Shown here one piece after another: positions 5,160 to 53,969 of a stretch of 64,000 bases of DNA. The translations under genes and the position numbers were made by a program. Position 1 is the first letter of the stretch. Each line of letters begins with the position of its first letter. The stretch is taken from assembly GCF_056712565.1 (NCBI RefSeq), contig NZ_CM160072.1; one strand, written 5' to 3'. The notes under the pieces are model-generated. The model was not told where the DNA came from, ran no database searches, and was given only the letters and a program-made list of their open reading frames with translations.

Positions 5160-5881
5160 GCATCGATATGCACTGTCATCTAGACTTATATCCTCGGCCA
5201 GACCTCGTGGCTGAAGAAAGTAAGCGTCGAGGGACTTATATTCTGTCGGTGACAACAACACCTAAAGCATGGCATGGTACTTCTTTATTGGCTAAAGAAA
5301 GTCAACGAATCCGAACTGCTCTTGGGCTACATCCTCAAATCGCGCATCAAAGATCGCATGAGTTAGACCTGTTTGATTCATTGCTTTCGGAAACTAAGTA
5401 TGTAGGGGAAATAGGGCTTGATGGTGGACAGGGATTTAAAGAACATTGGGATATTCAATTGAAAGTGTTCCGACACATTCTCAACAGTGTAAATCGGGCT
5501 GGTGGCAAGATTATGACTATCCATAGTCGGGGAAGTGCATCAGCGGTGCTTGATGAGATTGAAAATATCGATGGGGTGGCAATATTGCATTGGTTCACTG
5601 GAACACCTAAGCAGCTTGAAAGGGCAATTGATTTAGGATGCTGGTTCTCAGTGGGGCCTGCTATGCTCGATACAATAAAGGGTAAGGCCTTAGTTTTGAA
5701 AATACCCAAATCACGCATTCTTACAGAAACAGATGGGCCATTTGCTAAGTTTCGTAATGACCCACTAATGCCATGGGATAGTGGGATTGCAGAGAAACAG
5801 TTAGCCGCATTATGGGGGATTAGTCAGATGGAGGTTAATGCTCAGCTAGTTGATAATTTTAAGGTATTATGTACATCATAA
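5156..5881 (+). CDS. qatD: TatD-family metal-dependent hydrolase/nuclease (QatD-like)
   Basis: N-terminal DMHCHLD (HxH), EIGLD, C-terminal TETDGPF motifs typical of TatD; 241 aa; start overlaps qatC stop. Confidence 0.75.
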   Translation: MSIDMHCHLDLYPRPDLVAEESKRRGTYILSVTTTPKAWHGTSLLAKESQRIRTALGLHPQIAHQRSHELDLFDSLLSETKYVGEIGLDGGQGFKEHWDIQLKVFRHILNSVNRAGGKIMTIHSRGSASAVLDEIENIDGVAILHWFTGTPKQLERAIDLGCWFSVGPAMLDTIKGKALVLKIPKSRILTETDGPFAKFRNDPLMPWDSGIAEKQLAALWGISQMEVNAQLVDNFKVLCTS

Positions 5882-6433
5882 GAATGAAAAACTTAGATAT
5901 GCATTTACAGTTCAATTCATTTTTCGTCATCAGTTAATTACACATAAAATTAAAAGTAAGAATATATCTACCCTGTGAATGAGTAAGGCGGATTTATATA
6001 GTTTGTAATTAGTTTAAATGTAAGCAGTTCGTCAGAGTGCGTATTCCGCTCTATTCGATCACGGATTGGCCGTTATGACCCGATCTCGATGGAAGTTATT
6101 GGGTGATCCCCTTCCATGAAAATATGCACCGAAGCTCCCGCAGAGGTTTCCGTGGGCGAAGGCATGATTCTGTCCGAGAGCCGGATGTGTTAGAAGCGCA
6201 TGTCCGCTTCGATGAGCGGGGTGTGGAAACAGGATTTATGGTCAGGACAGTAAGGCACCGCCAATCGAAAGAGGCGGCAACAGATATGCCTGACCTGTAA
6301 AATTACCGCGCCACATCTTGACTCTACCCGTTTTCCAAGCGCCCCCCCTTATAGAACGTACACTGGATGGTGATACCGGCTATACATCGCATATTTGACA
6401 GTCAGCTTGCTGAATTTTTCATTGGCTGCAGCA

Positions 6434-7009
6434 TCAGGGCGTTTTCCAGATGACAGCTATAGTAAAAATGATCGCCAGACTGGCGAGAAAGCAGAGCGAA
6501 AGCGGGATTTTGTCCTTCAGTGTCAGGTTCAGCTCTTCTTCAACCCATGCTTTTTCAAATTCACAGTAAAATTTATAATGTGCGTACCAGTTACTTCCGA
6601 AGATCTGTTTGCTGATGACCGTGCCGTAAAACCGGGACATGATAGCGTCGATGGATTGTTGTGTACGCTGATAGTCAAAGTTTGCATCGCTTTTTACGTT
6701 GCGGTAGATGACTTCAAGTTCATTAAAAATTTTGGTCTGCTCAATCCCCGCACTTTCATAACTCTGCTTTTCCGAGTCATAAAACTGAATGTACATTGTA
6801 GCAACACCAAATATAATTAATATCGCGGAAATGACGTTTGTGGCCAGCTCAGGAATAAAAAGGGCGAACACACCGACAGCAAGAGAAATAAAGCTAATCC
6901 AACCGGATGCCTTACAAATCAGATCATAGGTGGCAAAGTTTTTCTTAGCGCCAAATCCAACGTTATAACCATGTCGGGCGATTAATTTCAGCATCTCTGA
7001 TTGCGTCAT
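6434..7009 (-). CDS. Small membrane protein, SLATT-like putative effector partnered with nucleotidyltransferase
   Basis: 191 aa; two central hydrophobic helices (WISFISLAVGVFALFIPELATNVISAILIIFGVATMYIQ) plus C-terminal hydrophobic segment; 7-nt gap after upstream gene. Confidence 0.5.
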   Translation of the reverse strand: MTQSEMLKLIARHGYNVGFGAKKNFATYDLICKASGWISFISLAVGVFALFIPELATNVISAILIIFGVATMYIQFYDSEKQSYESAGIEQTKIFNELEVIYRNVKSDANFDYQRTQQSIDAIMSRFYGTVISKQIFGSNWYAHYKFYCEFEKAWVEEELNLTLKDKIPLSLCFLASLAIIFTIAVIWKTP

Positions 7010-7016
7010 AAAAACC

Positions 7017-8345
7017 TCAGCTTATGGGAACTTCAATCTGGGCCCGGGCAACCACAACCTCATTTTTTATCACATAGCATTCTACCATGTGATCTCCGCG
7101 GAAGTCGGTAGTTTCTTTCTTCGTACAGTAGCCGCCGTCCGAAACGATTTGTCCCCGGATCATATTTCTTCTGCGTGCTTCGTCACCCACGTTCAGTACC
7201 TTCCACATAACGGTGTAGGGTTCCTCTGCCTCCATTTCTGTCAAGTCTGCCCGGAAAAGGAGAGATTTTCGAGCGGAGAGGCGGAATCTTCTGATAAGCA
7301 TCTCCCTCAGGCTTCTGGGAGGGAAACCATCCTGGGTTACGGTACAGTCAAGGTTGAGTGAGTACCTGATATCCACCGGATATTTATCCTCTATAAACTC
7401 TTCGGTATCGGTCCAGGGAACAGCATCTGCCGCATGCGATTCCAGACCAAGACGGGCTTCCATAATACCCACTTTACGTCTGGGGAAGGCTCGTCCGAAC
7501 ACTTTGCGCCAGCGGTCATTTTCACTGGCAGCCCCCTCAGCGTCTAAGGCATCACAACATAATTCATACGCGTGTTTCGCTGCCCGGCCAAACCAGGGAG
7601 ATTTAACACGTACATGCTGATTACTGCCTAACGCGAGATACCTTTCCTTTCTCTCCTCATTTGACAGATATTCAAAAAAGTCTCTGGCGAGGGCTCCCAG
7701 GCTGCCATTTCCGGTATTGTCATAATCTGATGTTGATGAAAGAAAGCGATACGCTAGTGTGTCTATCAGTAAGCCACCCATATTGACGCCATGCAGGTTC
7801 TTCCAGGCTCTGATCATTTTACACAGCTTGCGCAGATTATTGGATTTATCTCGCGAAAATGCGGTCATGGCCGCCTTTTCGTGAAGAGGTTTTGTAATGC
7901 GCCATGCTCCTCCATTATAGCTTTCAGGGAATTTAAAGCTGTCATCATCCTGTCTGAATACAGGTTGAACCTCGACATAAAAGTTTTTAAAGATGATCTG
8001 AACAACCAGTCTGTCCTTTTTCACAGTCTGGTCAGGATATTCTTCCGCCAGAATGTTTCTGACATCTGTAAGCAATGCAGACTGACCATTATCCTTACGG
8101 TTATAATATTCATACTGATTGGGGGGCATAATATAAAGCATATCCAGATCGGATATGCCTTTTATTGCGGTATGTCTGCCTACTGACCCCACTTTCAAGC
8201 GGTTTGCTACCCGGGAACTCGTTCCTCTGAACGCAAGATTTAATGACTTGGTTATTTTTCGATAGTGATAGCTGATCTTTTTTGCCTGTTTGAGGTCAAG
8301 ATTCAAATTTTCAAGAAATTCGCTGAACAATTCCCTGTGGCTCAT
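7017..8345 (-). CDS. SMODS/CD-NTase-like nucleotidyltransferase with about 120-aa C-terminal extension
   Basis: Pol-beta-type NTase signature GSVGRHTAIKGISDLD (GS-x10-[S]DhD) and downstream acidic strand YVEVQP; 442 aa. Confidence 0.55.
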   Translation of the reverse strand: MSHRELFSEFLENLNLDLKQAKKISYHYRKITKSLNLAFRGTSSRVANRLKVGSVGRHTAIKGISDLDMLYIMPPNQYEYYNRKDNGQSALLTDVRNILAEEYPDQTVKKDRLVVQIIFKNFYVEVQPVFRQDDDSFKFPESYNGGAWRITKPLHEKAAMTAFSRDKSNNLRKLCKMIRAWKNLHGVNMGGLLIDTLAYRFLSSTSDYDNTGNGSLGALARDFFEYLSNEERKERYLALGSNQHVRVKSPWFGRAAKHAYELCCDALDAEGAASENDRWRKVFGRAFPRRKVGIMEARLGLESHAADAVPWTDTEEFIEDKYPVDIRYSLNLDCTVTQDGFPPRSLREMLIRRFRLSARKSLLFRADLTEMEAEEPYTVMWKVLNVGDEARRRNMIRGQIVSDGGYCTKKETTDFRGDHMVECYVIKNEVVVARAQIEVPIS

Positions 8346-10859: not shown

Positions 10860-11627
10860 CTCGGTAGTGCATCCAATTAGTAGAATATGTGTTTTTCGAT
10901 AAATGCTCCGATCACTTTTTCGTGGATCTCAACTGAGCGTGAGAAGCAGATTGTTTACGAGCCAACCGCTTAATGTGGGTGCGTAGCGTCAGATTATTAC
11001 GCTCAATGCGTTGGGTGAATATTTTGCCGGTCAGATGCTTATTCTTCGGCACCACCCGGCCATAGCTGTCCCAGTCATCGCTGGTGAGCATGCCGATGTT
11101 GAAGGGTGTAAGCAGTGCCAGTAGCTCCCGGCACGTTTGATCGGTTCGGGGACCAAAAGTGTAGGCCAGTACACCGCCTGTTTTGGTGTTGTACGCGTAC
11201 CAGAGCCAGTGTAGCCGGGCTTTACTGCCAACGTAGCTCCATTGCTCATCAAGCTCGCAGATAAGCGCCACATCAGCATGGGCAACAGGCGAAGAAGTTA
11301 TTTGCGTTGGTGCGAGTTTTTTAAAGTCCGGATGATGGTGTTAATACCAATTTTCAGTGTCCTGGCGGTATCGCGAACCCCGGCACCATTAAAGGCCATT
11401 TCAGTGATCATCTCTTTCATACCCGGCTTACGTGCTTGATAAGTATAAGTGAGCTGAAACACACGGTGGCAGTCACGGCAGCGAAATCTGTCACGGCCTT
11501 TAGGGTTCTGACCATGGCGGTAAACCTGAGCTGACTGACAACGGGGACAATGAATATTAACGCTGGCCATGAGATAACCTCAAAAGCCCGTATTATACAT
11601 CAGATTCAACCAATTAGAGGCATCACC
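10860..11627 (-). mobile_element. Divergent IS1-family insertion sequence
   Basis: InsA-like (11298..11570) and InsB-like (10912..11271) ORFs; ends resemble IS1 IRs (GGTAGTGCATCCAA... / ...GGCATCACC); InsA only about half identical to the canonical IS1 InsA at 17483. Confidence 0.65.
11298..11570 (-). CDS. insA: IS1-family InsA-like protein (divergent isoform)
   Basis: 90 aa, Zn-finger CPRCQS..CRDCHR and HTH resembling IS1 InsA. Confidence 0.7.
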   Translation of the reverse strand: MASVNIHCPRCQSAQVYRHGQNPKGRDRFRCRDCHRVFQLTYTYQARKPGMKEMITEMAFNGAGVRDTARTLKIGINTIIRTLKNSHQRK

Positions 11628-11822: not shown

Positions 11823-13292
11823 ATGCATATCGATTCGACTGAAAAAAATAATAAACAAAAGTTGGGCTTGCTTGCGCTAACATCCATTGTCGTGAGCTCG
11901 ATGATCGGCAGCGGCGTTGACGGACTCCCCCAGAATATGGCGGAGAATTCTGCCGTGGGCCCGGTGGCGATAGCATGGATAGTCTGTGGTATCGGCATGT
12001 TTTTCATCTCCAGAACTTTTATCGTGCTGTCAAACATTAGACCTGATCTCCAGTCAGGAGTTTATATGTATGCCCGGGAAGGGTTCGGCCGATTTACGGC
12101 ATTTAACGTCGCCTGGGGCTACTGGCTGATGACTATATTCAGCAACGTCGCCTTTGCCATTATGGTGATGGATACGCTGAATTATTTCTTACCAGGTGAT
12201 TTCAAGGGAGGGAACAATATTCCTTCCGTTATCGGTGCCTCTTTGCTGATATGGGGATTCAACTTTTTAGTCCTCTCCGGTACCCGCATTGCCGGGTCGA
12301 TTAACATCGTCGGCACGCTGGCCAAACTGATCCCGCTGGTGGCCTTTATTATTATTCTCATGCTGTTTATGAAGTACACCACGTTCGCAGATAACGTCTG
12401 GGGGCACAGCGCGAGTAAGGCCAGTCAGGACCTAGGCTCTATTTTCTCACAGGTAACTTCACCGCTTAGCGTGGCACTCTGGAGCTTCATCGGCGTTGAG
12501 GGGGCTGTCGCTCTTTCCGGTCGGGCCAAAAATAAACGCGACGTGGGTAAAGCCACATTCATTGGCTTCGTTGTATCACTGATTATCTGTCTGCTGGTCT
12601 CCATCCTGCCGTTTGGCGTGCTGACTCAACATGAGCTCAGCGCAATTCCAACCCCATCCACCGCCGGTATTCTGAAGATTGTTGTCGGTGAATGGGGGAA
12701 GATTATGATTATCTTGGGGGTGCTGATTTCGGTGCTTACCAGCTGGCTGGCGTGGACCATCATCTGCGCCGAACTGCCTATGGTGGCCGCGCAGAACGGC
12801 ACATTCCCGAAACCGTTCAGCAAAAAAAATGTGAAGGGTTCGGCCTCGGTTTCGCTTTATATAAGCAGTGCGTTTATGCAAATCGTCGTACTTCTGGTCT
12901 ACTTTTCTAACGATGCCTGGCTTGCAATGCTGGCTATCTCTACCCTGACCGTTTTACCTGCGTATTTAATGACCACGGCATACCTGTTTAAACTATGTAT
13001 TAGCGGCGAGTATGCCAGCTATACCACGAATCACAGCCGCAGCGCCGCGCTGGTCAGCAGTATTATCGGCTTTGTATTCTGCCTGTTTATGTTCTACGCC
13101 AGTGAAATCAAATATCTGGCGATGGTTCCGGTGCTGCTTACGCTGGGCGTGCCCCTGTTTATCTGGGCAAGAAAAAAAGACGATCGCGCAGATAAAATAT
13201 TTACGCTACGCGAACTGGCATTTTTTATTTTACTGCTGGTCCTCGACATCATTGTTTTTATTCTACTGCATTATAAAACGATACATTTTTAG
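11823..13292 (+). CDS. APC-superfamily basic amino acid antiporter, ArcD/YdgI-like (paralog 1)
   Basis: 489 aa polytopic; N-terminal KLGLLALTSIVVSSMIGSGV..LPQNMA and GVYMYAREGFG, FIGVEGAV..SGRAKNKRDVGKAT motifs as in arginine:ornithine-type antiporters. Confidence 0.7.
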   Translation: MHIDSTEKNNKQKLGLLALTSIVVSSMIGSGVDGLPQNMAENSAVGPVAIAWIVCGIGMFFISRTFIVLSNIRPDLQSGVYMYAREGFGRFTAFNVAWGYWLMTIFSNVAFAIMVMDTLNYFLPGDFKGGNNIPSVIGASLLIWGFNFLVLSGTRIAGSINIVGTLAKLIPLVAFIIILMLFMKYTTFADNVWGHSASKASQDLGSIFSQVTSPLSVALWSFIGVEGAVALSGRAKNKRDVGKATFIGFVVSLIICLLVSILPFGVLTQHELSAIPTPSTAGILKIVVGEWGKIMIILGVLISVLTSWLAWTIICAELPMVAAQNGTFPKPFSKKNVKGSASVSLYISSAFMQIVVLLVYFSNDAWLAMLAISTLTVLPAYLMTTAYLFKLCISGEYASYTTNHSRSAALVSSIIGFVFCLFMFYASEIKYLAMVPVLLTLGVPLFIWARKKDDRADKIFTLRELAFFILLLVLDIIVFILLHYKTIHF

Positions 13293-13396
13293 TCCAGATT
13301 AATTCACAGCAAGTTAAGGTGACGATAATGTCTGTTTCTTGGGCATGACATCCTCACAGTTAAATACTATCTGAACAGTAACCGTGGAGACACCTA

Positions 13397-15766
13397 ATGA
13401 AATTTAACCACAATCTTTTATTTATTTCCTCACAATATCTTGATGGCGACAACCCTTCGCAGCAGGTACTGGAAGAGCTTCAAACCGAACTCGCGGAACG
13501 CGGTTTTAAAATTCATATCACGCACCAGATCTCTGATGGATTAAAAATCATCGAAAAAAGCCCCCAATACAGCGGGATTGGTTTTTACTGGGAGCCAGAC
13601 AATCCGACCTTTGCAGAAGAGCTACAGCACTTTATCAGCATATTCCGCAAAAGAAATGCCACGACGCCGCTGATAATTTTCTCAGAACAGAATATTACCG
13701 ATCGTATCCCACTCGACGTCTTAAAAGAGGTCAGCGAATATGTTTATCTGTTCTCTGAATCCGCAGCCTTCACTGCCAATCGACTGTACTCCTTAGTCCA
13801 CCGCTATGCGGATAAGCTTCTTCCTCCCTACTTTAAAACCCTTAAGGACTTTACCGAGGACGGTGACTATTACTGGGACTGCCCGGGGCATATGGGGGGA
13901 ATGGCCTATCTGAAACATCCTGTTGGCATTGAGTTCATTAACTTCTTTGGCGAAAACATGATGCGCGCTGATATTGGCGTGGCTACCGCGGAGATGGGGG
14001 ATTATCTGATCCACGCCGGACCGCCTAAAAAATCGGAAGAAATTGCGGCCCGACTGTTTGGCTCTGATTGGACCTTCTACGGTGTTTCCGGCTCATCGGG
14101 GTCGAACCGTATTGTGGCCCAGGCTGCGGTTGGCGCAGATGAAATTGCCATTATTGACCGAAATTGCCACAAGTCACTTAATCATGGCCTGACCTTGTCT
14201 CAGGCAAGGCCGGTTTACCTGAAACCTACCCGCAACGCGTGGGGGCTGATTGGGCCTATCCCGACCGGGCGCCTGAAGAAGGCCAGTATTGATGCGCTGG
14301 TGGCAAACAGCCGACTGGCATCTGGTGCGGTCAGCCAGTCCCCGTCCTACGCCGTGGTAACCAACTGCACCTATGATGGCTTCTGTTATAACGTGAACGA
14401 TGTAGTCAGACACCTGGGTGAAAGCGCACCGCGCATCCATTTTGATGAAGCATGGTATGCCTATGCGCGTTTCCATCCGCTATACCAGAGTCGCTATGCA
14501 ATGGACGCGGAGGAAACGCCAAATCGTCCAACCCTATTCGCCGTACAGTCCACCCATAAAATGCTGCCCTCACTCTCCATGGCCTCAATGATTCATGTGA
14601 AGAAAAGCGATCGCGCGCCGCTTAATTTCGATGACTTTAACGATGCCTTTATGATGCACGGCACGACCTCACCCTACTACCCGATCATTGCATCAATTGA
14701 TGTGGCAGTAAGCATGATGGAGGGTGAATCCGGTTATTCGCTTGTGCAGGAGTCAATTGAAGAAGCGATTGCCTTCCGTAAAGCCGTGGTCAGCGTCAAG
14801 CGCCAGCTCCAGGAGCAGGAAGGTGGTGACGCCTGGTTCTTCGATGTGCTTCAGCCAACCGAAGTGCAGGACAGCGATTCTGGGCAGCGATACAGTTTTG
14901 AAGAGGCACCCGTATCGCTGCTGAGCCACAGCGCCGACTGCTGGTCGCTGCGCTCCGGTGAGCGCTGGCACGGTTTTGCCGATGATGATCTGGTCGAAAC
15001 CAACAGTATGCTCGATCCAGTAAAAGTGACCCTGACTTGTCCAGGGATCGGCCCGAAGGGAGAATACCAGAAAAACGGTATTCCGGGATATTTGCTGACC
15101 CGTTTTCTCGATGACCGTCGCATTGAAATTGCCCGTACTGGTGACTACACCGTGCTGATCCTGTTCTCCGTCGGCATCACCAAAGGCAAATGGGGAACTC
15201 TGATTGAAAGCCTGCTGGCCTTTAAAAAGCATTACGACAATGACGATCTGGCCACAGATGCTATCCCGTCGCTGAAAGCGCATTCTCCACACTACGACAC
15301 GCTAACCCTCAAGGAGCTATGTCAGATAATGCATGAAAAAATGGATGAGCTGGAGCTGATGTCGCATATCAACGACGCGGTAAACACCGATCCGGAACCA
15401 GTTATGACCCCGGCAGAAGCCTATCAGAAAGTCGTACGCTACAAAACCGAGCATATCCGGCTGGATGATTTTAGCGGCAGAATTGCCGCCAGCATGCTCG
15501 TCCCATATCCCCCAGGCATTCCTGTACTGATGCCGGGCGAACGGATGCCGCAAGGTAACAAGGGCATTATTGGCTATCTGCGCGCCCTGCAGGAATTCGA
15601 TAAGCAATTCCCAGGTTTTGAACATGAGATCCAGGGCGTTAACGTCGATGAAAACGGGGACTTCTGGGTCAGAGCGATTGTGGAAGAAGAACGCGATGGG
15701 CAGTCGCTACCCGGCCACATAACCTTTAAACGCCAGGTCTCTGGTATTAAAAAGGGCCGCCAGTAG
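13397..15766 (+). CDS. PLP-dependent Orn/Lys/Arg decarboxylase, AdiA-like (biodegradative arginine decarboxylase family)
   Basis: 789 aa; DRNCHKS, VTNCTYDGFCYN, HFDEAWYAYARF, QSTHKMLP (PLP lysine), GKWGTLIESLLAFKKHYD closely parallel recalled AdiA motifs, less so CadA/SpeF. Confidence 0.8.
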   Translation: MKFNHNLLFISSQYLDGDNPSQQVLEELQTELAERGFKIHITHQISDGLKIIEKSPQYSGIGFYWEPDNPTFAEELQHFISIFRKRNATTPLIIFSEQNITDRIPLDVLKEVSEYVYLFSESAAFTANRLYSLVHRYADKLLPPYFKTLKDFTEDGDYYWDCPGHMGGMAYLKHPVGIEFINFFGENMMRADIGVATAEMGDYLIHAGPPKKSEEIAARLFGSDWTFYGVSGSSGSNRIVAQAAVGADEIAIIDRNCHKSLNHGLTLSQARPVYLKPTRNAWGLIGPIPTGRLKKASIDALVANSRLASGAVSQSPSYAVVTNCTYDGFCYNVNDVVRHLGESAPRIHFDEAWYAYARFHPLYQSRYAMDAEETPNRPTLFAVQSTHKMLPSLSMASMIHVKKSDRAPLNFDDFNDAFMMHGTTSPYYPIIASIDVAVSMMEGESGYSLVQESIEEAIAFRKAVVSVKRQLQEQEGGDAWFFDVLQPTEVQDSDSGQRYSFEEAPVSLLSHSADCWSLRSGERWHGFADDDLVETNSMLDPVKVTLTCPGIGPKGEYQKNGIPGYLLTRFLDDRRIEIARTGDYTVLILFSVGITKGKWGTLIESLLAFKKHYDNDDLATDAIPSLKAHSPHYDTLTLKELCQIMHEKMDELELMSHINDAVNTDPEPVMTPAEAYQKVVRYKTEHIRLDDFSGRIAASMLVPYPPGIPVLMPGERMPQGNKGIIGYLRALQEFDKQFPGFEHEIQGVNVDENGDFWVRAIVEEERDGQSLPGHITFKRQVSGIKKGRQ

Positions 15767-15840
15767 GCGGGGGAAAGAACAATACCGTCGGATCGCCTGC
15801 AATCCGACGGCAATATTATAGAATAGCTGAGGGAAACGTT

Positions 15841-17340
15841 ATGGCAGAGCAATCTTCAGATGTAAAAAATAGTGACAATAGCGCCGGAGGACATAAGCTG
15901 GGGCTTATATCCCTCATCGCTATTGTCGTTAGCTCCATGCTGGGAGGCGGCGTTTTCAGTCTGCCGCAAAACACGGCGGCCTCTTCTGCACTAGGGCCAG
16001 TAATCATTGCATGGATTATTGCCGGGATCGGTATTTATTTTATCGCAAACTCCTTTCGCGTACTATCAGATCTGCGCCCGGACCTTCAGGCTGGAGTGTA
16101 TATGTATGCCCAGGAAGGTTTTGGTTCCTTTATTGGCTTTAACGTCGCCTGGGGCTACTGGCTGATGACCGCATTTGGCAACGTTGCCTTTGCGGTAATT
16201 TTAATGGATGCTTTTAATCAGTTTATGCCGGGGGTTTTTACGGATGGTAATAATCTGAACTCCATTATCTGCGGCTCAGTGCTGATCTGGGGCTATAATT
16301 TTCTTGTTCTGTCCGGGACGAAAGTGGCCGGATTTGTTAACACCTTGGGAACCATCGCCAAGCTCGTCCCTCTGATCCTATTCGTATTACTGCTGGGTGT
16401 GCTGATCGATTATTCGGACCTGTTTAAAAACTTTTGGGGAGAATCACCCGCGATCCTCAGTGGCAACGGAAATGACGCCGCACCAGTATCGCTGCTGTCT
16501 CAGATTCTGGCACCGATGACCGTAACGCTCTGGGCCTTTATTGGCGTCGAGGGAGCGGTTGTTCTATCCGGACGTGCCAAAAATAAACAGGACGTAGGGA
16601 AAGCCACACTGATCGGCTTTCTGCTGGCGCTAATTATTTATATGTTAATGTCCATTCTGCCGTTCGGTGTAATGCCTCAGGCAGAACTAGCGCAGGTCAG
16701 TAACCCCTCTACCGCAGGCGTGCTCGCCCACGTTGTCGGTCAGTGGGGCGACTGGCTGATGAGCGCGGGGCTGATTATTTCTGTTCTGGCCGGCTGGCTT
16801 GCCTGGACCATGCTATGCGCTGAAATACCGATGGTCGCAGGACAGAAAGGCGCTTTCCCGCGCGCGTTTGCCCGAACGAACAGTAAACAGGCGGCCAATG
16901 TGTCACTGTGGGTTAGTAGCTTTGTGATGCAGGCGGCCATGTTACTTGTTTATTTTTCAAATAATGCTTGGACCACCATGTATAATATCAGTGCGCTGAT
17001 GGTTGTTCCGGCCTATATTACCACCACGCTGTATCTGACCAGTATTTGCAGAAACGGAAAATATGATCAGTATGCAAAAAAAGGCCGCAGGCTGGCTTTG
17101 TCCAGCGGTGTTTTAGGCTCGCTATTCTGTCTGTTTATTCTTTACGCCAGCCAGATTGAGTATGTTGCATTAATTCCTATCCTGTTGACCTGTGGTCTGC
17201 CGGTCTTTATCTGGTCAAGAAAAGAAAAAAATGATGGTCAGCCGATATTTACCAAAAAAGAGCTGATTTATCTGATTATGCTGTTGCTGTGCGATATTAT
17301 CGTCGTTGCCCTGTTTATTGGTGGATATTTAAAGGTATAA
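15841..17340 (+). CDS. APC-superfamily basic amino acid antiporter, ArcD/YdgI-like (paralog 2)
   Basis: 499 aa; same motif set as 11823..13292 (KLGLISLIAIVVSSMLGGGVFSLPQN..). Confidence 0.7.
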   Translation: MAEQSSDVKNSDNSAGGHKLGLISLIAIVVSSMLGGGVFSLPQNTAASSALGPVIIAWIIAGIGIYFIANSFRVLSDLRPDLQAGVYMYAQEGFGSFIGFNVAWGYWLMTAFGNVAFAVILMDAFNQFMPGVFTDGNNLNSIICGSVLIWGYNFLVLSGTKVAGFVNTLGTIAKLVPLILFVLLLGVLIDYSDLFKNFWGESPAILSGNGNDAAPVSLLSQILAPMTVTLWAFIGVEGAVVLSGRAKNKQDVGKATLIGFLLALIIYMLMSILPFGVMPQAELAQVSNPSTAGVLAHVVGQWGDWLMSAGLIISVLAGWLAWTMLCAEIPMVAGQKGAFPRAFARTNSKQAANVSLWVSSFVMQAAMLLVYFSNNAWTTMYNISALMVVPAYITTTLYLTSICRNGKYDQYAKKGRRLALSSGVLGSLFCLFILYASQIEYVALIPILLTCGLPVFIWSRKEKNDGQPIFTKKELIYLIMLLLCDIIVVALFIGGYLKV

Positions 17341-17482
17341 GTCCGAGTTAAATCTTTACTGGGCTAGTAATGCCGCCTTTTAAACAAGAAGGGCGGCAAT
17401 CTTACTGAAATTAGTATGCTGCAAATCGGTAATGCTGCCAACTTACTGATTTAGTGTATGATGGTGATTTTAAGGTGCTTGC

Positions 17483-17758
17483 GTGGCTTCCATTTCCATC
17501 AGATGTCCTTCCTGCTCCGCTACTGAAGGCGTGGTGCGTAACGGCAAAAGCACTGCCGGACATCAGCGCTATCTCTGCTCTCATTGCCGTAAAACATGGC
17601 AACTGCAGTTCACTTACACCGCTTCTCAACCCGGTACGCACCAGAAAATCATTGATATGGCCATGAATGGCGTTGGATGCCGGGCAACTGCCCGCATTAT
17701 GGGCGTTGGCCTCAACACGATTTTACGTCACTTAAAAAACTCAGGCCGCAGTCGGTAA
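17483..17758 (+). CDS. insA: IS1 InsA
   Basis: [40 protein letters not shown]... 91 aa. Confidence 0.9.
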
Positions 17759-18180
17759 CCTCGCGCATACAGCCGGGCAGTGACGTCATCGTCTGCGCGG
17801 AAATGGGCGAACAGTGGGGCTATGTCGGGGCTAAATCGCGCCAGCGCTGGCTGTTTTACGCGTATGACAGGCTCCGGAAGACGGTTGTTGCGCACGTATT
17901 CGGTGAACGCACTATGGCGACGCTGGGGCGTCTTATGAGCCTGCTGTCACCCTTTGACGTGGTGATATGGATGACGGATGGCTGGCCGCTGTATGAATCC
18001 CGCCTGAAGGGAAAGCTGCACGTAATCAGCAAGCGATATACGCAGCGAATTGAGCGGCATAACCTGAATCTGAGGCAGCACCTGGCACGGCTGGGACGGA
18101 AGTCGCTGTCGTTCTCAAAATCGGTGGAGCTGCATGACAAAGTCATCGGGCATTATCTGAACATAAAACACTATCAATAA
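17677..18180 (+). CDS. insB: IS1 InsB (transposase frame; expressed as InsAB' by frameshift)
   Basis: 167-aa ORF overlapping insA in -1 frame. Confidence 0.85.
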
Positions 18181-18646
18181 GTTGGAGTCATTACCGACAT
18201 TGTCAAGATGAACAGCATGCATTGTAACAGTCTGCAGTTTATGTTCTCCGTGGATAATTATTCTTATTTCATGGTGATTTTTGTTATATTTTAAAATGCA
18301 TATCTCACCATTTAGTTTTTTATATCACAAAAACATAGTGATGCAATCATACACACCTGCCTCTATCGTACAGAGAAAACGGGCAATTATTTGTATTATT
18401 CCTTCATAACGACTTCAGTATACAGGATGACCGCAACCACGCTCCTTCTCCTGCCCGGGCGAAGTGCCTGGTTCAGACAATTACATTAACTGGCTGAAAT
18501 TTTCGACGCGGTACAAGCCTCCCTGCTTTGAAAGGTGGCCTGGCGCTGCAATTTTTTACTTTTGTTTTTGTATCCGGAAAAACACATCTGCAAGAATCAT
18601 TATTCTCTTGCCTGAAGCTATCCAGCATCCTCAGATATTTCGCACT

Positions 18647-19162
18647 TTATGAGCTGGCATCAGAAAAATGTGCCAGTAATTTTTTATTAATGACTTCAAA
18701 CAGTTCCTGTTCATCATGAGTCAGATAATCCCAGATTTCTTTCAGATACATGCTTTGTGCAAGAGTGAGCCTCTGAATAAAAAACATACCTTCAGATGTC
18801 AGACTGATTTTTTTAGCACGGCGATCCTCCCTGCTATCCGTCCTTTTTACATATCCGGCTTTTTCTAAAAAATCTGTAATGCGGGTAATATTAGTTCTGG
18901 TAAACTGAAGTTTCTGGCTTATCTCTGAAGGTGACAGACAATGGTTCTCCGCTGCGAATAATGTGGTGAGAACCATATATGCTGAGTGATTTATTCCATA
19001 CGCCCCCAGAAATTCAGATATATTATCCTGCATTCTTTTATTTGTGCGAATACAGAGCTGCATCAACAAATGTTCCCGAAAGGGATATGCGGGGTCTTTG
19101 TTTTTTTGGTGTCTGATTATTTTTTCTAATGTGTCTGTGTTATTCATTTCATTATTCTCCAT
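18647..19162 (-). CDS. MarR-family transcriptional regulator, PapX/SfaX-like (fimbrial-operon-associated)
   Basis: winged-HTH region LSPSEISQKLQFTRTNITRITDFLEKAGYVKR; recalled similarity to 17-kDa PapX-type proteins; start trimmed to MENNEM. Confidence 0.6.
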   Translation of the reverse strand: MENNEMNNTDTLEKIIRHQKNKDPAYPFREHLLMQLCIRTNKRMQDNISEFLGAYGINHSAYMVLTTLFAAENHCLSPSEISQKLQFTRTNITRITDFLEKAGYVKRTDSREDRRAKKISLTSEGMFFIQRLTLAQSMYLKEIWDYLTHDEQELFEVINKKLLAHFSDASS

Positions 19163-19364
19163 ATTACTGAAACACACTGTCTGTGTACAAGCGCGCATCA
19201 GTCATCCGGTAAACATCGACTTTCCACTACAATTTATTCCTACCTGATTTCTGTATGACAGAGTAGTCCCGACAGGCAGACGGATAAATTCCCGCAGGTA
19301 AAAGAACATAAATGCTGGCTGCTGACAAGTCTGTGAAAAAGGATTATTGTAGTGGTTCACAAAA

Positions 19365-20157
19365 TCAGGACACCGGAATAACCTGTTTCCACTTTTCTTC
19401 ATGTAAGCAAGGCGGTAAACCATCGTTGTTCGTGTGAGGTCGATAAACGTTGTAATAACCATTAATCCACTGGTTTATATCACGTACCGCATGGATAAAA
19501 TCACCATAACCACCTTTCGGAAGCCATTCATTTTTAAGGCTGCGAAAGACTCTTTCCATCGGCGAATTATCCAGGCCATTCCCTCTGCAACTCATACTTT
19601 GCATTACCCCATAACGCCAGAGTAACTTTCTGTATTTATTGCTTTTATACTGAACACCTTGATCTGAATGAAACAGCAGACGGCCATCACGTGATCGTGT
19701 TTCCAGTGCATTACGCAAAGCCCTACACACCAACTCAGCATCAGCGGTTAATGAGAGGGCTGAACCGGTAATCCGCCGTGAATATAAATCAACAACGAGC
19801 GCGAGCTAACACCATTTGTCATGCAGGCGAATAAAACTGATGTCGCCGCACCAGACGCGGTCTGGTGCGGCGGGGTGAAATTGCCGGTTCAGTAAATTTG
19901 GCAATGGCGGACTTTTGTCTTCGTTGACCCGGTAGTGATGTTTAACCATCTGTCGACTTGTCAGCCCGCATTCCCGCATCAGTCGTCGTGCCAGCCACCG
20001 GCCTGCATCAACGCTACTCTGGCGCAACATCTGACTGATTGCACGGCTACCGGCTGCGCCACGACTGAGAGCATGGAAAGCCCTCACCCGACTTCGTAAG
20101 TCAATTCTTTGCACATTAACAGGACGCGTCACCTGCGCGTAATAAACGCTACGGTTA
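19365..20157 (-). pseudogene. IS3-family transposase OrfB remnant (split into two frames, 5' end cut by IS1)
   Basis: ORFs 19806..20171 and 19365..19733 carry IS3-family OrfB motifs ([26 protein letters not shown]); frame break near 19740-19800; abuts IS1 end at 20158. Confidence 0.6.
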
Positions 20158-20172
20158 GGTAATGACTCCAAC

Positions 20173-20676
20173 TTATTGATAGTGTTTTATGTTCAGATAA
20201 TGCCCGATGACTTTGTCATGCAGCTCCACCGATTTTGAGAACGACAGCGACTTCCGTCCCAGCCGTGCCAGGTGCTGCCTCAGATTCAGGTTATGCCGCT
20301 CAATTCGCTGCGTATATCGCTTGCTGATTACGTGCAGCTTTCCCTTCAGGCGGGATTCATACAGCGGCCAGCCATCCGTCATCCATATCACCACGTCAAA
20401 GGGTGACAGCAGGCTCATAAGACGCCCCAGCGTCGCCATAGTGCGTTCACCGAATACGTGCGCAACAACCGTCTTCCGGAGCCTGTCATACGCGTAAAAC
20501 AGCCAGCGCTGGCGCGATTTAGCCCCGACATAGCCCCACTGTTCGCCCATTTCCGCGCAGACGATGACGTCACTGCCCGGCTGTATGCGCGAGGTTACCG
20601 ACTGCGGCCTGAGTTTTTTAAGTGACGTAAAATCGTGTTGAGGCCAACGCCCATAATGCGGGCAGTTGCCCGGCAT
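20173..20676 (-). CDS. insB: IS1 InsB
   Basis: identical 167-aa product. Confidence 0.85.
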
Positions 20677-20870
20677 CCAACGCCATTCATGGCCATATCA
20701 ATGATTTTCTGGTGCGTACCGGGTTGAGAAGCGGTGTAAGTGAACTGCAGTTGCCATGTTTTACGGCAATGAGAGCAGAGATAGCGCTGATGTCCGGCAG
20801 TGCTTTTGCCGTTACGCACCACGCCTTCAGTAGCGGAGCAGGAAGGACATCTGATGGAAATGGAAGCCAC
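20595..20870 (-). CDS. insA: IS1 InsA
   Basis: identical 91-aa product. Confidence 0.9.
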
Positions 20871-21399
20871 GCAAGCACCTTAAAATCACCATCATACACT
20901 AAATCAGTAAGTTGGCAGCATCACCCAATCTGCTGACAGACGAAGATAATGAACCCGTTATGGTTTTTAACGGAGAGAGGAATGTACTGGCAGACAGTCT
21001 GAAACCACAGCCTCTGATTCTTCCGGTCAAGGGAAAATAAGCGTAATGTTCATCACCAGATTATGTACGATGAGTTTTCCACTGTTTATAGCAATTATCT
21101 TGCTAATAACCAGACAGGAGTAACCAGACCAACCGAAAACACCGGGAAGGTGATTACCCGCTGGCAGAGGAAATCCGGTTTTTTTTGATGTCAGCCATAA
21201 CGTGTTTGACAATAAAGCATCATGAAAGGGTGTTAATGAGTCCATGGGATAATTCATAAAAATAATTTACTGTGTTATCCTTTTCAAAAGAAATATTCAG
21301 AAGATAACCCCTGGCTGACAACCAGGGGAAGGGAGCATTAACAGTGTTATTATTGGTGAATAAATTATTACTTGTGTGCAGGATACACTAATGCAATAT

Positions 21400-22473
21400 C
21401 TACTGATACTGTATGCCAGTATGTTTCATGCCTGCCGCTGAAAACGGCAATATCCAGGGCCAGACATATTCACCATTCATATTTCTGCATTTCTGTACAA
21501 TTTTCTCAGAAAGCGTCTCATCAATTCTTTCACGCAACTTCTCCTGCTGTCTTAAAATACTTTCGCATATTTCGAAATCATCTTCCTGCATCAGCATTTC
21601 GGCGCATTTAATGATTTCTGCCCGTTCATGCAGCACAGAGGAATGATTATAGAGCCAGTTTACAAACAGCAATGCTTCCGGATATTGCCCCCATAACGGG
21701 TGGTATGTGGCATAATAATCTTCGGCAGTATCCGGACCGCCTGAAAAGTTATGCCATACAGCAAGTGGAAATGGATGCAGATTTCCGCACAGTATTTCTG
21801 CGATGTAAGTATTTGCCGCAAAGCCGCGACGAAATGCAGTTGCAGCTTTTACCAGTTCCCCATTAAGAAAATGCAGAAGGCCGAGTTCATACCAGTAAGG
21901 TGAAAATTCATCTGCATGTTCCTGCAGTATATGGCGTGCCTGTTCATGAGCGCCAGTGCGTAACAGTTCCGGTCCCAGTAGCCAGCGTGCACCATGATTA
22001 TCTTCGGGATTGTAATCCAGTATTTTTTCAATGAGCATGATGGCATCCTGATGACGCCGTAAATGTGCATTTGCCAGGATTGCCGCATAGAGGGCACGAA
22101 GAAAAGGTCGGTTGTCAGGATGTATCCAGATGATTCTGCCACTGAAACCTTCAGGGATAAGACGATTGCCAACTGCCAGCCCTTTAAGGGCAGCATTCAG
22201 CGCCTTACGCGGGGCATTCTGCTCCAGAAATACGTATGCCAAGTGAGCGTGTACATCAATAAAGTCATTCTCCTGTCGGGCAAGGCGCCTGAGTTTGTTG
22301 ATGTAACTTGTTTCGCTGATTTCATCCGCATCGTATGCATCAATCAGTTCTTCAAACTCATCCAGCAACGAGCCAAACCAGGTTTCCGGAAATATGAAAC
22401 AGCCCTGGTTATCGTTCACTTCAAAGCGTAATTTGCCAGTCATATTCTGAACCTGTAAAAAAGGATGGACCAT
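21400..22473 (-). CDS. Hypothetical protein (helical-repeat-like), island cargo next to integrase
   Basis: 357-aa ORF, no motif I can assign; good coding length and position. Confidence 0.4.
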   Translation of the reverse strand: MVHPFLQVQNMTGKLRFEVNDNQGCFIFPETWFGSLLDEFEELIDAYDADEISETSYINKLRRLARQENDFIDVHAHLAYVFLEQNAPRKALNAALKGLAVGNRLIPEGFSGRIIWIHPDNRPFLRALYAAILANAHLRRHQDAIMLIEKILDYNPEDNHGARWLLGPELLRTGAHEQARHILQEHADEFSPYWYELGLLHFLNGELVKAATAFRRGFAANTYIAEILCGNLHPFPLAVWHNFSGGPDTAEDYYATYHPLWGQYPEALLFVNWLYNHSSVLHERAEIIKCAEMLMQEDDFEICESILRQQEKLRERIDETLSEKIVQKCRNMNGEYVWPWILPFSAAGMKHTGIQYQ

Positions 22474-22698
22474 AACCTGCAGGCTATAAAAATTGTGATG
22501 CCTGGCATCGGTGTCCTTTTATTGTCCGGGATTAACGTTGCCCATGATAATACAGTGAATTCTGTTCTGTGGTAAGACGTTGAGTTATTGAATGAGAACC
22601 TCAGCCTGGCTGATGGTTCCGCCGGCATAAAAAAGAAATTGATTGAGGCGGGTGCTCTTCCCCTTAAGAGGAAGAGCATGTGTGTAAATGGCGTTCAG

Positions 22699-23964
22699 TC
22701 ACCTTTTCAGTGGATTGTTAACTTTTGCATATTCAAACGGACTGATACACTCCTCCCTGTTTGCATCCAGAAAATCTGCCCACCATTGCAGCATAAGCCG
22801 ACGTTCTTCCAGATGTTCTGCTTTATGAATATACGCGGCACGTACTCCGTTGCGCTCCTGATGACTCATCTGACGTTCAACCGCATCTCTTGACCATAAG
22901 CCGGATTCAATCAATGCACTGCACGCCATCGCCCGGAATCCATGGCCACAGACTTCCTTGGTTGTGTCATACCCCATCACTCTGAGGGCCTTATTTACGG
23001 TATTTTCACTGATTGGTTTACGTGGGTCGTGTGCTCCCGTAAAGATCAGACCATTTTCACCTGCCCATGTCTGAAGTTCTGCCAGTATGGCTACAGCCTG
23101 TTGGCTGAGTGGCACAAGATGTGGTGTTCGCATCTTGGAGCCCCGGTATGAAAATTTTACGCCTGGCAGAGGTTCGCGTTCGGCTGGAATAGTCCACATG
23201 GCATTGTCAATATCAATTTCAGACCAGCGGGCATATCTGAGTTCACTGGAACGAATAAAAACCAGTAAATTCAGCATAACTGCCAGTCGGGTGACAGGCT
23301 GGCCTTTATAACCGTCAATACGCGACAGAAGTTCAGGCAGGCGTGAAAGATCCAGAGCAGGGCGATGCTGGCGTTTTACCGTGGTCAATGCACCAGCCAT
23401 ATCCAGAGCCGGGTTATATCTGATGATGCCAGACTGTACGGCATAACGCATTACAGCAGATATTCTTTGCTGCAGACGACTGGCGATTTCATAAATTTGT
23501 TTAACTTCTGCAGCACGAACAGGGATAAGCAGATCCGGGGTACTGAGTGTTGTGATATCCCGGTTGCCGATAAAGGGGAAAACGTGAGTCTCGAGGCTTT
23601 TGAGTACTTTATCGCTGTGTGATTGTGCCCATTGTTTATTACTGGCATGCCAGCGTCGTGCAATATGTTCAAAAGAGAGCTGTAAATCAGGGACTACTTT
23701 TTTAGCTCTTTTCTGTTCGCAAGGGTCAACCCCCTCCGAAATCAGTTTTCGGGCCTCATCCCGTTTTGTACGAGCTTCGGAGAGAGAAACTTCCGGATAC
23801 ACACCAAGTGCCAGGGTTTTCTCCTTACCCAGAATACGATAACGGAGACGCCAGTAACGGGAACCATTAGGATGTACCAGCAGGAACATGCCAGCCCCGT
23901 CAGTGAGTTTATAAGCCTTGTCAGTGGGCTTTGCAGCCCGGATTTTTGCGTCAGTCAGTGCCAT
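22699..23964 (-). CDS. int: P4-type (CP4-like) tyrosine integrase
   Basis: 421 aa; N-terminal MALTDAKIRAAKP..KAYKLTDGAGMFLLVHPNGSRYWRLRYR typical of P4-family integrases; C-terminal HGFRAMACSALIESG and R..Y region; adjacent to tRNA 3' end. Confidence 0.85.
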   Translation of the reverse strand: MALTDAKIRAAKPTDKAYKLTDGAGMFLLVHPNGSRYWRLRYRILGKEKTLALGVYPEVSLSEARTKRDEARKLISEGVDPCEQKRAKKVVPDLQLSFEHIARRWHASNKQWAQSHSDKVLKSLETHVFPFIGNRDITTLSTPDLLIPVRAAEVKQIYEIASRLQQRISAVMRYAVQSGIIRYNPALDMAGALTTVKRQHRPALDLSRLPELLSRIDGYKGQPVTRLAVMLNLLVFIRSSELRYARWSEIDIDNAMWTIPAEREPLPGVKFSYRGSKMRTPHLVPLSQQAVAILAELQTWAGENGLIFTGAHDPRKPISENTVNKALRVMGYDTTKEVCGHGFRAMACSALIESGLWSRDAVERQMSHQERNGVRAAYIHKAEHLEERRLMLQWWADFLDANREECISPFEYAKVNNPLKR

Positions 23965-24127
23965 AGTTCAGCCTTCTGAATGCGTTAAAGAGGGTACAAA
24001 TTCTGTCGAACTGGGGTATACCCGCAATTATACCCACACAATGGGGTTGATGTGGGGGGAATCTGGTTGAGTTCGGTAGAATTGATTTGGAGGCAGAACG
24101 CTTAAATTGTGGCGTTCTGAAACGAAA

Positions 24128-24160
24128 AACGGACCTCCGTGGAGGTCCGTTGATATGAAC
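24128..24160 (-). terminator. Rho-independent terminator downstream of tRNA-Phe
   Basis: GGACCTCCacGGAGGTCC hairpin followed by T-run on minus strand. Confidence 0.6.
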
Positions 24161-24161
24161 T

Positions 24162-24237
24162 TGGTGCCCGGACTCGGAATCGAACCAAGGACACGGGGAT
24201 TTTCAATCCCCTGCTCTACCGACTGAGCTATCCGGGC
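24162..24237 (-). tRNA. pheU: tRNA-Phe (GAA)
   Basis: Reverse complement reads GCCCGGATAGCTCAGTCGGTAGAGCAGGGGATTGAAAATCCCCGTGTCCTTGGTTCGATTCCGAGTCCGGGCACCA. Confidence 0.95.
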
Positions 24238-53670: not shown

Positions 53671-53746
<76 letters not shown>

Positions 53747-53782
53747 AAATTTGAAAAGTGCTGTAAAGCACAGACCACCCAA

Positions 53783-53858
<76 letters not shown>

Positions 53859-53893
53859 AAATTTGAAAGTGCTGTAAAGCACAGACCACCCAA

Positions 53894-53969
<76 letters not shown>

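Follow-up and report, generated by a model that had tools for sequence, protein, structure and literature searches.

We analyzed a 64,000-nucleotide stretch of contig NZ_CM160072.1 (NCBI RefSeq assembly GCF_056712565.1), referred to here as the window, in which the regulator gene papX lies between two inward-facing copies of the insertion sequence (IS) IS1. This cassette is very probably what is left of the 3' end of a decayed pap-type (P-fimbrial) operon in an island with a P4-type integrase, and its IS1 pair would invert the interior by host recombination. A repeat search found one long inverted repeat in the region (17428-18195 and 20158-20925), with 768 nt per arm and a spacer of 1,962 nt. 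By exact comparison, the left copy (IS1-L) and the right copy (IS1-R) are identical at 767 of 768 positions, and a chance match is ruled out for a 768-nt repeat at 99.9% identity. The sole mismatch is at IS1 position 4 in the outer, left inverted repeat (IRL), with A in IS1-L and G in IS1-R. A first-pass annotation, made from the sequence alone, had described two identical IS1 copies in inverted orientation. The inverted arrangement and the identity of the InsA (91 aa) and InsB-frame (167 aa) translations were confirmed, but the DNA is not strictly identical. In both copies the right inverted repeat (IRR) end faces the interior and the IRL end faces outward.

The inverted form of the cassette was sought in a set of 5,426 complete Escherichia coli genomes. 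The query was a synthetic isomer in which the flanks and the IS1 copies were kept and the interior was reverse-complemented, and a match required at least 80% coverage. The arrangement of the window, in which an IS3-family remnant faces the integrase side (orientation A), was present in 176 genomes, and the exact inverted isomer (orientation B) was present in 131. The top matches listed for orientation B were all full-length and mostly in a single piece, and several were 100.0% identical. Strain MS8345 had 0 differences from the synthetic isomer, and its genes are annotated in the flipped order. In both isomers the position-4 marker remains with its outer flank and the junction between the antiporter gene region and the IRL of IS1-L is unchanged, and the two inner junctions are exchanged. 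Since the marker stays in place and the same four junction halves are re-paired, the isomers are the products expected of a crossover inside the IS. Inversion of the cassette is thus real in natural genomes, as had been anticipated when the inverted pair was first described as a substrate for inversion.

A sister cassette is carried by sequence type 131 (ST131) genomes, represented here by EC958, in the genomic island at pheV (GI-pheV). Its order is integrase, tetratricopeptide repeat (TPR) protein, small hypothetical open reading frame (ORF), IS1, the segment equivalent to window positions 18196 to 19453, a second and inverted IS1, and then papA'-papB-papI, with papA' frameshifted and cut by IS1. 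Counted with a 1,500-bp papA'BI flank (with a 500-bp papA' flank, ST95- and Y5-type loci reach ~87% joined coverage), this cassette was in its native orientation in 561 genomes and flipped in 38 (38/599). All 38 flipped matches were single-piece and full-length, and the flip was confirmed by annotation in SaT040 and MB1341. The flanking yqgA allele and the orientation of the cassette occur in all four combinations, namely, allele 526 native (EC958 and locus L003), 526 flipped (MB1341), 491 native (CFSAN067215), and 491 flipped (SaT040), which implies at least two independent flips in the ST131 cassette. Together with at least one flip of the ST95-type cassette, we infer at least three independent flips overall.

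Matches to the window at 100% were obtained in S88, APEC O1, and many more genomes; S88, APEC O1, and similar genomes are presumably of sequence type 95 (ST95). Genomes with the ST95-type allele are divided between 176 in orientation A and 8 in orientation B. Orientation B represents the ancestral state and A the derived one, because B places position 18196 beside the small hypothetical ORF, as in the native ST131 cassette, and makes papX colinear with papB and papA'. No 100% match was obtained for orientation A with Y5-type alleles, the best matches to the A-type Y5 query being ST95-type genomes. With ST95-type alleles, orientation B was found in three contexts: with pheU directly beside the integrase, with a CP4-like island inserted at that point, and with an SPI-7-type integrative and conjugative element (ICE) inserted at that point. 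The CP4-like island lies between the integrase and tRNA-Phe in MS8345 (locus L004 15100-20601), encodes ParDE and CbtA/YeeU, and gives a tandem array. The ICE of FDAARGOS_1300 (locus L008 19100-28601) lies in the same position, carries dnaB-PI, ParA, and ParB, and likewise gives a tandem array. Typing of the ST95 isomers by single-nucleotide polymorphisms (SNPs) in 15 kb of flanking island DNA yielded too few SNPs, which were private or found only in AH21I008 and AHB22; the flanking island DNA of MS8345 is identical to that of the window. Two mutations are common to AH21I008 and AHB22, a 1-bp deletion at window position 12822 that puts a frameshift in the first antiporter gene and a C>T substitution at 10930, and they identify these strains as a small clade of orientation-B genomes.

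Orientation was constant among near-identical isolates from the same study. MSB1_7A and 3B, 447, 463, 439, and 446, and S21EC and S22EC were all flipped, and 4/1-1, 4/4, and 2/0 were all native. Given this constancy within clones and the absence of flipped cassettes among ~120 Y5-type islands, flipping is rare and heritable and is explained neither by fast phase variation nor by assembly noise. Recombination between inverted IS copies inverts the segment between them, an event that is invisible to short reads (PMC5009759). The cassette resembles other IS-IS inversions of E. coli in its full-length inverted IS copies, its four re-paired junction halves, and the lack of new target duplications. 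In contrast to those inversions, the segment is very short (1.3 to 2.0 kb) and carries a single regulator that is predicted to be functional, the polymorphism is countable in hundreds of natural genomes, and the IS copies visibly evolve in concert. The cassette also shares with fimS, which is inverted by FimB and FimE, a short segment near fimbrial or motility regulation that is found in two orientations. Unlike fimS, it has neither a dedicated recombinase nor short inverted repeats, the promoter stays with the gene, and the flips are rare and clonally stable. The repeats are whole 768-bp IS copies, and the only nearby recombinase is the P4-type integrase of the island, so the cassette does not have the features of a programmed switch.

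Several lines of evidence connect the interior with a pap-type operon. The sequence of the pap-like operon of strain A24 continues uninterrupted across position 18196, where the window is cut by IS1-L; homology to the pap operon end of strain F11 ceases near 18441. The ST131 cassette has pap genes as neighbors, and the homology of the interior to A24 and F11 ends at 19347. Taken together, the continuity of A24, the pap neighbors in ST131, and this endpoint indicate that the interior corresponds to the 3' end of a pap-type operon. The island is bounded by a P4-type integrase gene and tRNA-Phe and lies beside dicD-dsbD-cutA, which identifies the pheU site. It encodes an integrase protein (WP_001218869.1) indistinguishable from the one in ST131 GI-pheV, and the TPR protein and small hypothetical ORF are also shared. 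The junction between the hypothetical ORF region and the IRL of IS1-R is common to ST131 GI-pheV, and the ST131 junctions on both sides of this IS1 (hypothetical ORF to IRL and IRR to 18196) are base for base those of the B isomer of the window cassette. IS-separated "complete or partial pap" modules have been described in GI-pheV with intP4.1 (PMC11537424).

The partial pap cluster of ST131 GI-pheV (papI-papB-papA'...papX in EC958) is the closest relative; it has the same inward-facing bracket of inverted IS1 copies, and both orientations occur there as well. The two cassettes differ at the second IS1, which in ST131 is inserted at 19453/19454, leaves a 107-bp IS3 remnant, and adjoins papA'-papB-papI, whereas in the window the second junction is at 20157, a decarboxylase/antiporter module adjoins, and pap genes are absent. 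Both ST131 copies are IS1A, in contrast to the window copies, which are another variant with 19 differences. The ST131 island occupies pheV and that of the window pheU. A24, which originates from an armadillo, carries a sfaY-type gene between the gene for a PapG-like adhesin and the X gene (locus L007 6150-6899), and the PapG-like protein carries no annotation beyond "PapG chaperone-binding domain-containing". The tail of the A24 operon looks like a hybrid pap/sfa type and is the best intact model for the window remnant.

The 183-aa ORF of the interior matches the Pfam MarR model (1.6e-12). Its product (WP_001447126.1) is 100% identical to the X protein that ends the intact pap-like operon of A24 (papF, papG-like, sfaY, X). 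Protein alignments gave 99% identity, with 1 residue different, to PapX of ST131 strain EC958 (WP_001774069.1) and 96% identity to PapX of F11, the strain in which a papX deletion has been studied (PMC6246914). PapX and FocX, two characterized paralogues, share 96.7% identity (PMC6246914). At the DNA level, papX with its flanks is 99.6 to 100% identical over 1,169 bp in ~1,000 complete E. coli genomes, in many of which RefSeq names the gene papX and in some of which it is annotated as a MarR gene. By these comparisons the regulator is papX itself, which is more than the PapX/SfaX-like gene that was first proposed. Pfam, RefSeq, and our reading of the ORFs also agree with the initial description of the interior as a MarR-type regulator gene and a split IS3 orfB that is cut by the second IS1.

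The upstream region of papX was compared with the published promoter. Residues T35, A97, and M103 in the 166-aa numbering of the literature (PMC6246914) are residues 52, 114, and 120 of the 183-aa ORF. By this offset, the 166-aa form starts at the ATG at window position 19147. The transcription start of papX/focX in CFT073 was mapped 144 bp upstream of this ATG, and transcription of papX starts at both the operon promoter and a proximal one (PMC6246914). With a 1-nt indel allowed for, the equivalent of the published start is at ~19290 in the window, 56 bp inside the kept operon DNA. The 149 bp upstream of papX, including this position, are retained; the gene is an orphan, as its operon is gone. 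The proximal promoter region thus appears to survive, ~20 bp below the IS3 terminus. Its predicted hexamers are a -35-like TTGTCA (19328-19323) and a -10-like TTTTAC (19303-19298), with a 19-bp spacer. A consensus promoter scan limited to spacers of 16 to 18 bp did not recover the published proximal promoter, whose spacer is 19 bp. The -10-like hexamer (19298-19303, minus strand) reads TTTTAC in the window and ST131 and TTTTAT in A24 and F11, and a patch at ~19240-19300 differs from both A24 and F11 by ~12 substitutions and a 1-nt indel. By this pattern the promoter allele may be recombinant or divergent. The window and ST131 are identical in the alignment from the IS3 terminus through the papX start.

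PapX represses flhD and motility (PMC6246914). Regulators of the PapX/SfaX/FocX group act on flhDC transcription and motility by binding the flhD promoter. In a transposon-directed insertion-site sequencing screen of EC958, Tn5 insertions in papX raised motility (PMC5425062), and the annotated EC958 papX sits within the IS1-bracketed cassette. Since insertions in EC958 papX alter motility and the upstream sequence is identical to that of ST131, the window gene is expected to be active. It is most likely expressed and still a repressor of flhDC and motility.

The IS1 copy on the side of the hypothetical ORF occupies the same site in all lineages, and its sequence shifts stepwise among them. It is of the IS1A type throughout in ST131, with 19 differences from IS1-L, at positions 4 to 55 only in Y5, and at position 4 only in ST95. 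The two Y5 copies differ at 6 clustered positions. The IS1 on the antiporter side carries no reciprocal IS1A markers, and position 486 is T in both ST95 copies and G in all others. Crossovers alone, even in two successive inversions, swap markers rather than erase them, and therefore non-reciprocal conversion is required. These mosaic patterns point to gene conversion between old, independent insertions as the source of the near-identity of the window copies. The first-pass annotation had taken many differences between the copies as the mark of old, independent insertions. That criterion fails in reverse, as the 6 differences in Y5, the 19 in ST131, and the conversion indicate, and near-identical IS copies cannot be taken as a sign of recent insertion.

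We looked for 9-bp target-site duplications and found none around IS1-L, which is flanked by CTGCAAATC and GACATTGTC, or around IS1-R, which is flanked, in the orientation of the IS, by AGCAGATTG and TAACCGTAG. Simple, composite, inversion-swapped, and duplicative-inversion duplications were likewise not found in the window, Y5, or ST131. The absence of an 8- to 9-bp duplication is expected if each IS1 copy later took part in deletion or recombination, and the identity of the copies as IS1 is unaffected. The proposal that this locus is the residue of a fimbrial island eroded by IS1-mediated deletion is supported as far as the residue is concerned, by papA'-papB-papI in ST131 and by the A24 operon; trimming by deletion is a step that we infer from the missing duplications.

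The cassette probably formed as follows. An IS3-family element would have inserted ~1 nt ahead of the stop codon that ends the upstream neighbor of papX, at a point ~20 bp above the proximal promoter of papX. IS1 would then have inserted twice, in separate events, and deletion or recombination associated with IS1 after each insertion would have led to loss of the fimbrial structural genes. The same events would have removed the left ~446 bp of the IS3 element and left both IS1 copies without target-site duplications. Between the inward-facing copies, papX would have stayed intact, together with its promoter region and its terminator. The 768-bp inverted copies would since have provided homology for host recombination, with reciprocal crossovers inverting the 1.96-kb interior. 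Both isomers are now fixed in natural lineages, and non-reciprocal exchange would have made the two copies nearly alike in the ST95-type lineage.

Some observations weigh against this interpretation or limit it. NCBIfam has no PapX-specific model, and the best match of the regulator is to MprA, below the cut-off of that model; with no hidden Markov model at the PapX level, membership rests on near-identity to named and tested proteins. The motility result of EC958 comes from the sister cassette, whose PapX differs by 1 residue, and the window gene has a different context, being preceded by the 810-bp IS3 remnant and by a predicted -10-like hexamer of TTTTAC rather than TTTTAT. Scars identical to those of deletion would also result if the IS1 copies had recombined with others elsewhere, for instance in an exchange between islands. 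SNPs are nearly absent from ST95-type islands, too few to count or orient the flips of that lineage or to tell basal from revertant B genomes. The count of 0 flipped among ~120 Y5-type islands means that flipping is rare. Finally, homologous recombination is deduced from its products.

Other origins of the IS1 pair were considered. In Tn1681-type transposons, inverted IS1 copies flank a passenger gene, and the window cassette has a similar appearance, with two complete inverted IS1 copies around a short one-gene passenger, intact ends and insAB' frameshift sites, and both IRL ends outward as in Tn1681. It is nevertheless extremely improbable that such a composite transposon brought papX into the island as a unit. 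The outer 9-mers are not duplicated (CTGCAAATC on the left and CAATCTGCT on the right), and every full copy examined has the same outer flanks, the antiporter gene and the hypothetical ORF, with no second, unrelated site among them. The ST131 cassette shares only the IS1 junctions on the side of the hypothetical ORF, and its second junction, from 19453 through IS1 to papA', fits decay in situ; the Y5 copies are different variants at their outer ends. Unlike a Tn1681-type unit, the window cassette lacks a surrounding duplication and a second location and would have been assembled by decay in place. IS1 transposes replicatively and yields adjacent deletions and inversions. This property, with the near-identity of the window copies, would be in keeping with a duplicative inversion, in which a single intramolecular replicative transposition made the pair and the inversion in one step. 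We regard this as very unlikely. The 9 bp outside one IRL should then match the 9 bp outside the other IRR, and they do not match in the window or in ST131. The clustered differences between the Y5 copies and the variant copy beside the hypothetical ORF in ST131 are not those of one duplicated element, and the isomers share the same four junctions re-paired, as reversible homologous exchange gives.

The two orientations could also be artefacts of assembly, in which segments between 768-bp repeats were placed in the wrong orientation. Repeats longer than short-read inserts cannot be oriented by short reads alone (PMC5009759), and some of the records may be hybrid assemblies. However, all of the records are complete-genome assemblies in which the repeats and interior together span only 3.5 kb, the near-identical isolates of single studies agree in orientation, and AH21I008 and AHB22 share private mutations as well as orientation. 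Random misorientation would not give the sharply unequal frequencies among lineages (0/~120 Y5-type, 38/599 ST131-type, and 176 versus 8 ST95-type), and an artefact is exceedingly improbable as the source of the two forms. A different reading accepts the inversion and makes it an accidental recombinational switch, in which orientation sets the outside promoter that reads through the upstream IS1 into papX and results in heritable differences in motility. The upstream neighbors would be the phase-variable papBA promoter (native) or the integrase-side genes in the ST131 arrangement and the decarboxylase/antiporter operon or the integrase-side genes in the ST95 arrangement. The outer genes, upstream IS1, IS3 remnant, and papX are codirectional in each orientation, the EC958 gene is phenotypically active, and papX is known to use both an operon and a proximal promoter (PMC6246914). 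We nonetheless consider such a switch very unlikely. Read-through would have to cross a complete IS1, an element whose insertions are strongly polar, and in the window the 810-bp IS3 remnant as well. There are no dedicated recombinase and no short recombination sites, and the flips are rare and stable within clones. Moreover, since the promoter region, gene, and terminator invert as one and the upstream IS1 always reads toward papX, the expression of papX is probably unaffected by the flip. If the switch did operate, rare flips would produce heritable differences in PapX dosage and motility among sublineages of two pandemic clones of extraintestinal pathogenic E. coli (ExPEC).

The preferred reading, a decayed pap-type operon end whose IS1 pair recombines, is a well-documented but ordinary instance of IS erosion and inversion within a pathogenicity island, and the understanding of IS biology and of PapX is unchanged by it. 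Recombination between inverted IS copies and partial pap modules in islands were already known (PMC5009759, PMC11537424). Neither this orientation polymorphism nor the conversion gradient of IS1 was described in the literature covered by limited searches, and the MS7163 genome paper contains nothing on the papX cassette locus. What the locus offers is a single short IS-bracketed segment in which deletion scars, reversible inversion, and concerted evolution of IS copies can be traced over ~900 complete genomes (ST95-type, ST131-type, and others). Short-read surveys are blind to this polymorphism. In two major ExPEC clones papX has persisted as an orphan after the fimbrial genes were lost, and in EC958 it is phenotypically active. 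Orphan copies should be counted when papX is used as a marker of P fimbriae or when motility regulation is compared across strains.

The features of the cassette and its flanks are listed in Table 1. Both arms are complete IS1 elements. Their proteins match the Pfam InsA N- and C-terminal domains and DDE_Tnp_IS1 (PF03811, PF12759, and PF03400) and the NCBIfam IS1 transposase model NF033558. The A6C frameshift motif AAAAAAC is present at IS1 position 307, as expected for the insA/insB' -1 frameshift, and RefSeq labels IS1-L "IS1 family transposase, programmed frameshift". Both copies have the size (~768 bp) and the imperfect ~23-bp terminal repeats of the IS1 family (GGTGATGCTGCCAACTTACTGAT and GGTAATGACTCCAACTTATTGAT); the IRL is GGTAATGCTGCCAACTTACTGAT in IS1-L and GGTGATG... 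in IS1-R, and the IRR is GGTAATGACTCCAACTTATTGAT. IS1 was found in 5,204 of the 5,426 complete E. coli genomes. A further IS1-family element, annotated by RefSeq at ~10877-11570 (minus strand), was rejected as a recombination partner, being divergent, frameshifted, and without blastn similarity to IS1-L or IS1-R. Its InsA-like ORF begins MASVNIHCPRCQ....

Table 1. Features of the papX cassette and its flanks (window coordinates)
Feature	Coordinates	Strand	Description
Left outer flank	15841-17427	+	Basic amino acid/polyamine antiporter gene (15841-17340) and 3' hairpin; adjoins the IRL of IS1-L
IS1-L	17428-18195	+	Complete 768-bp IS1; outer end IRL GGTAATGCTGCC... (A at position 4), inner end IRR
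IS1-L coding content			insA 17483-17758; insB frame 17677-18180; A6C frameshift motif 17734-17740
X-gene 3' flank	18196-18646	-	From A24-type pap-like operon; cut at 18196 by IS1-L
papX	18647-19198	-	Intact MarR-family winged-helix regulator gene, 183-aa ORF
papX leader and putative proximal promoter region	19199-19347	-	Kept from operon; A24/F11 homology starts at 19347
IS3-family remnant	19348-20157	-	Right-hand 810 bp of a ~1,257-bp IS
IS1-R	20158-20925	-	Complete 768-bp IS1, inverted relative to IS1-L; inner IRR at 20158, outer IRL at 20925 (G at position 4)
Right outer flank	20926-24237	-	Small hypothetical ORF 21027-21257; TPR protein 21400-22443; P4-type integrase 22699-23964; tRNA-Phe 24162-24237 (pheU side)

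The IS3-family remnant ends on the right at a genuine IS terminus, ...CCACTACA, at 19348. Its orfB frame runs from 20156 down to 19365 (minus strand), with a single internal stop at 19806-19808, and is open into the IS1-R junction. The Pfam domains HTH_21, rve, and rve_3 and, in part, the NCBIfam IS3 transposase model NF033516 were matched, and RefSeq annotates the gene as "internal stop; incomplete; missing N-terminus". The rve DDE core and the 5'-TG...CA-3' termini place the remnant in the IS3 family. A fuller copy of the element in D8 is ~1,257 bp long, is 97% identical to the remnant, and has the IRL TGTAGTGG...; relative to this copy, ~446 bp comprising the IRL, orfA, and the start of orfB are absent at the IS1-R junction. 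The remnant does not have the set of orfA, orfAB frameshift, and both termini that makes up a complete element, and it is dead. At the other end of the regulator gene, a terminator-like hairpin (18590-18611) directly follows the papX stop codon. An Rfam scan of 16500-22000 gave no match at E values of ≤0.1.

The whole island is at pheU in the window, S88, ZJ3920, and AH21I008 and at pheV in Y5 and SCU-313. SCU-313 has the ST95-type island and allele set in orientation A at pheV, which indicates a recent transfer of the island between sites or lineages. The island as a whole thus moves between the two tRNA-Phe sites. The module at 11823-17340 consists of an antiporter gene (11823-13292), a gene for a 789-aa decarboxylase of the Orn/Lys/Arg family (13397-15766), and a second antiporter gene (15841-17340), both antiporters being of the basic amino acid/polyamine type. 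It looks like an acquired decarboxylase/antiporter system of the acid resistance type. According to the annotation of S88, the segment at ~5000-8345 of this island carries defence genes, namely, the Qat anti-phage genes qatC and qatD (to ~5881) and genes for a SLATT-domain protein (6434-7009, minus strand) and a nucleotide-binding-domain protein (7017-8345, minus strand). Three tandem tRNA-Gly(GCC) genes are located at 53671-53969, ~30 kb from tRNA-Phe, a spacing that fits the glyVXY-pheU part of the chromosome in E. coli.

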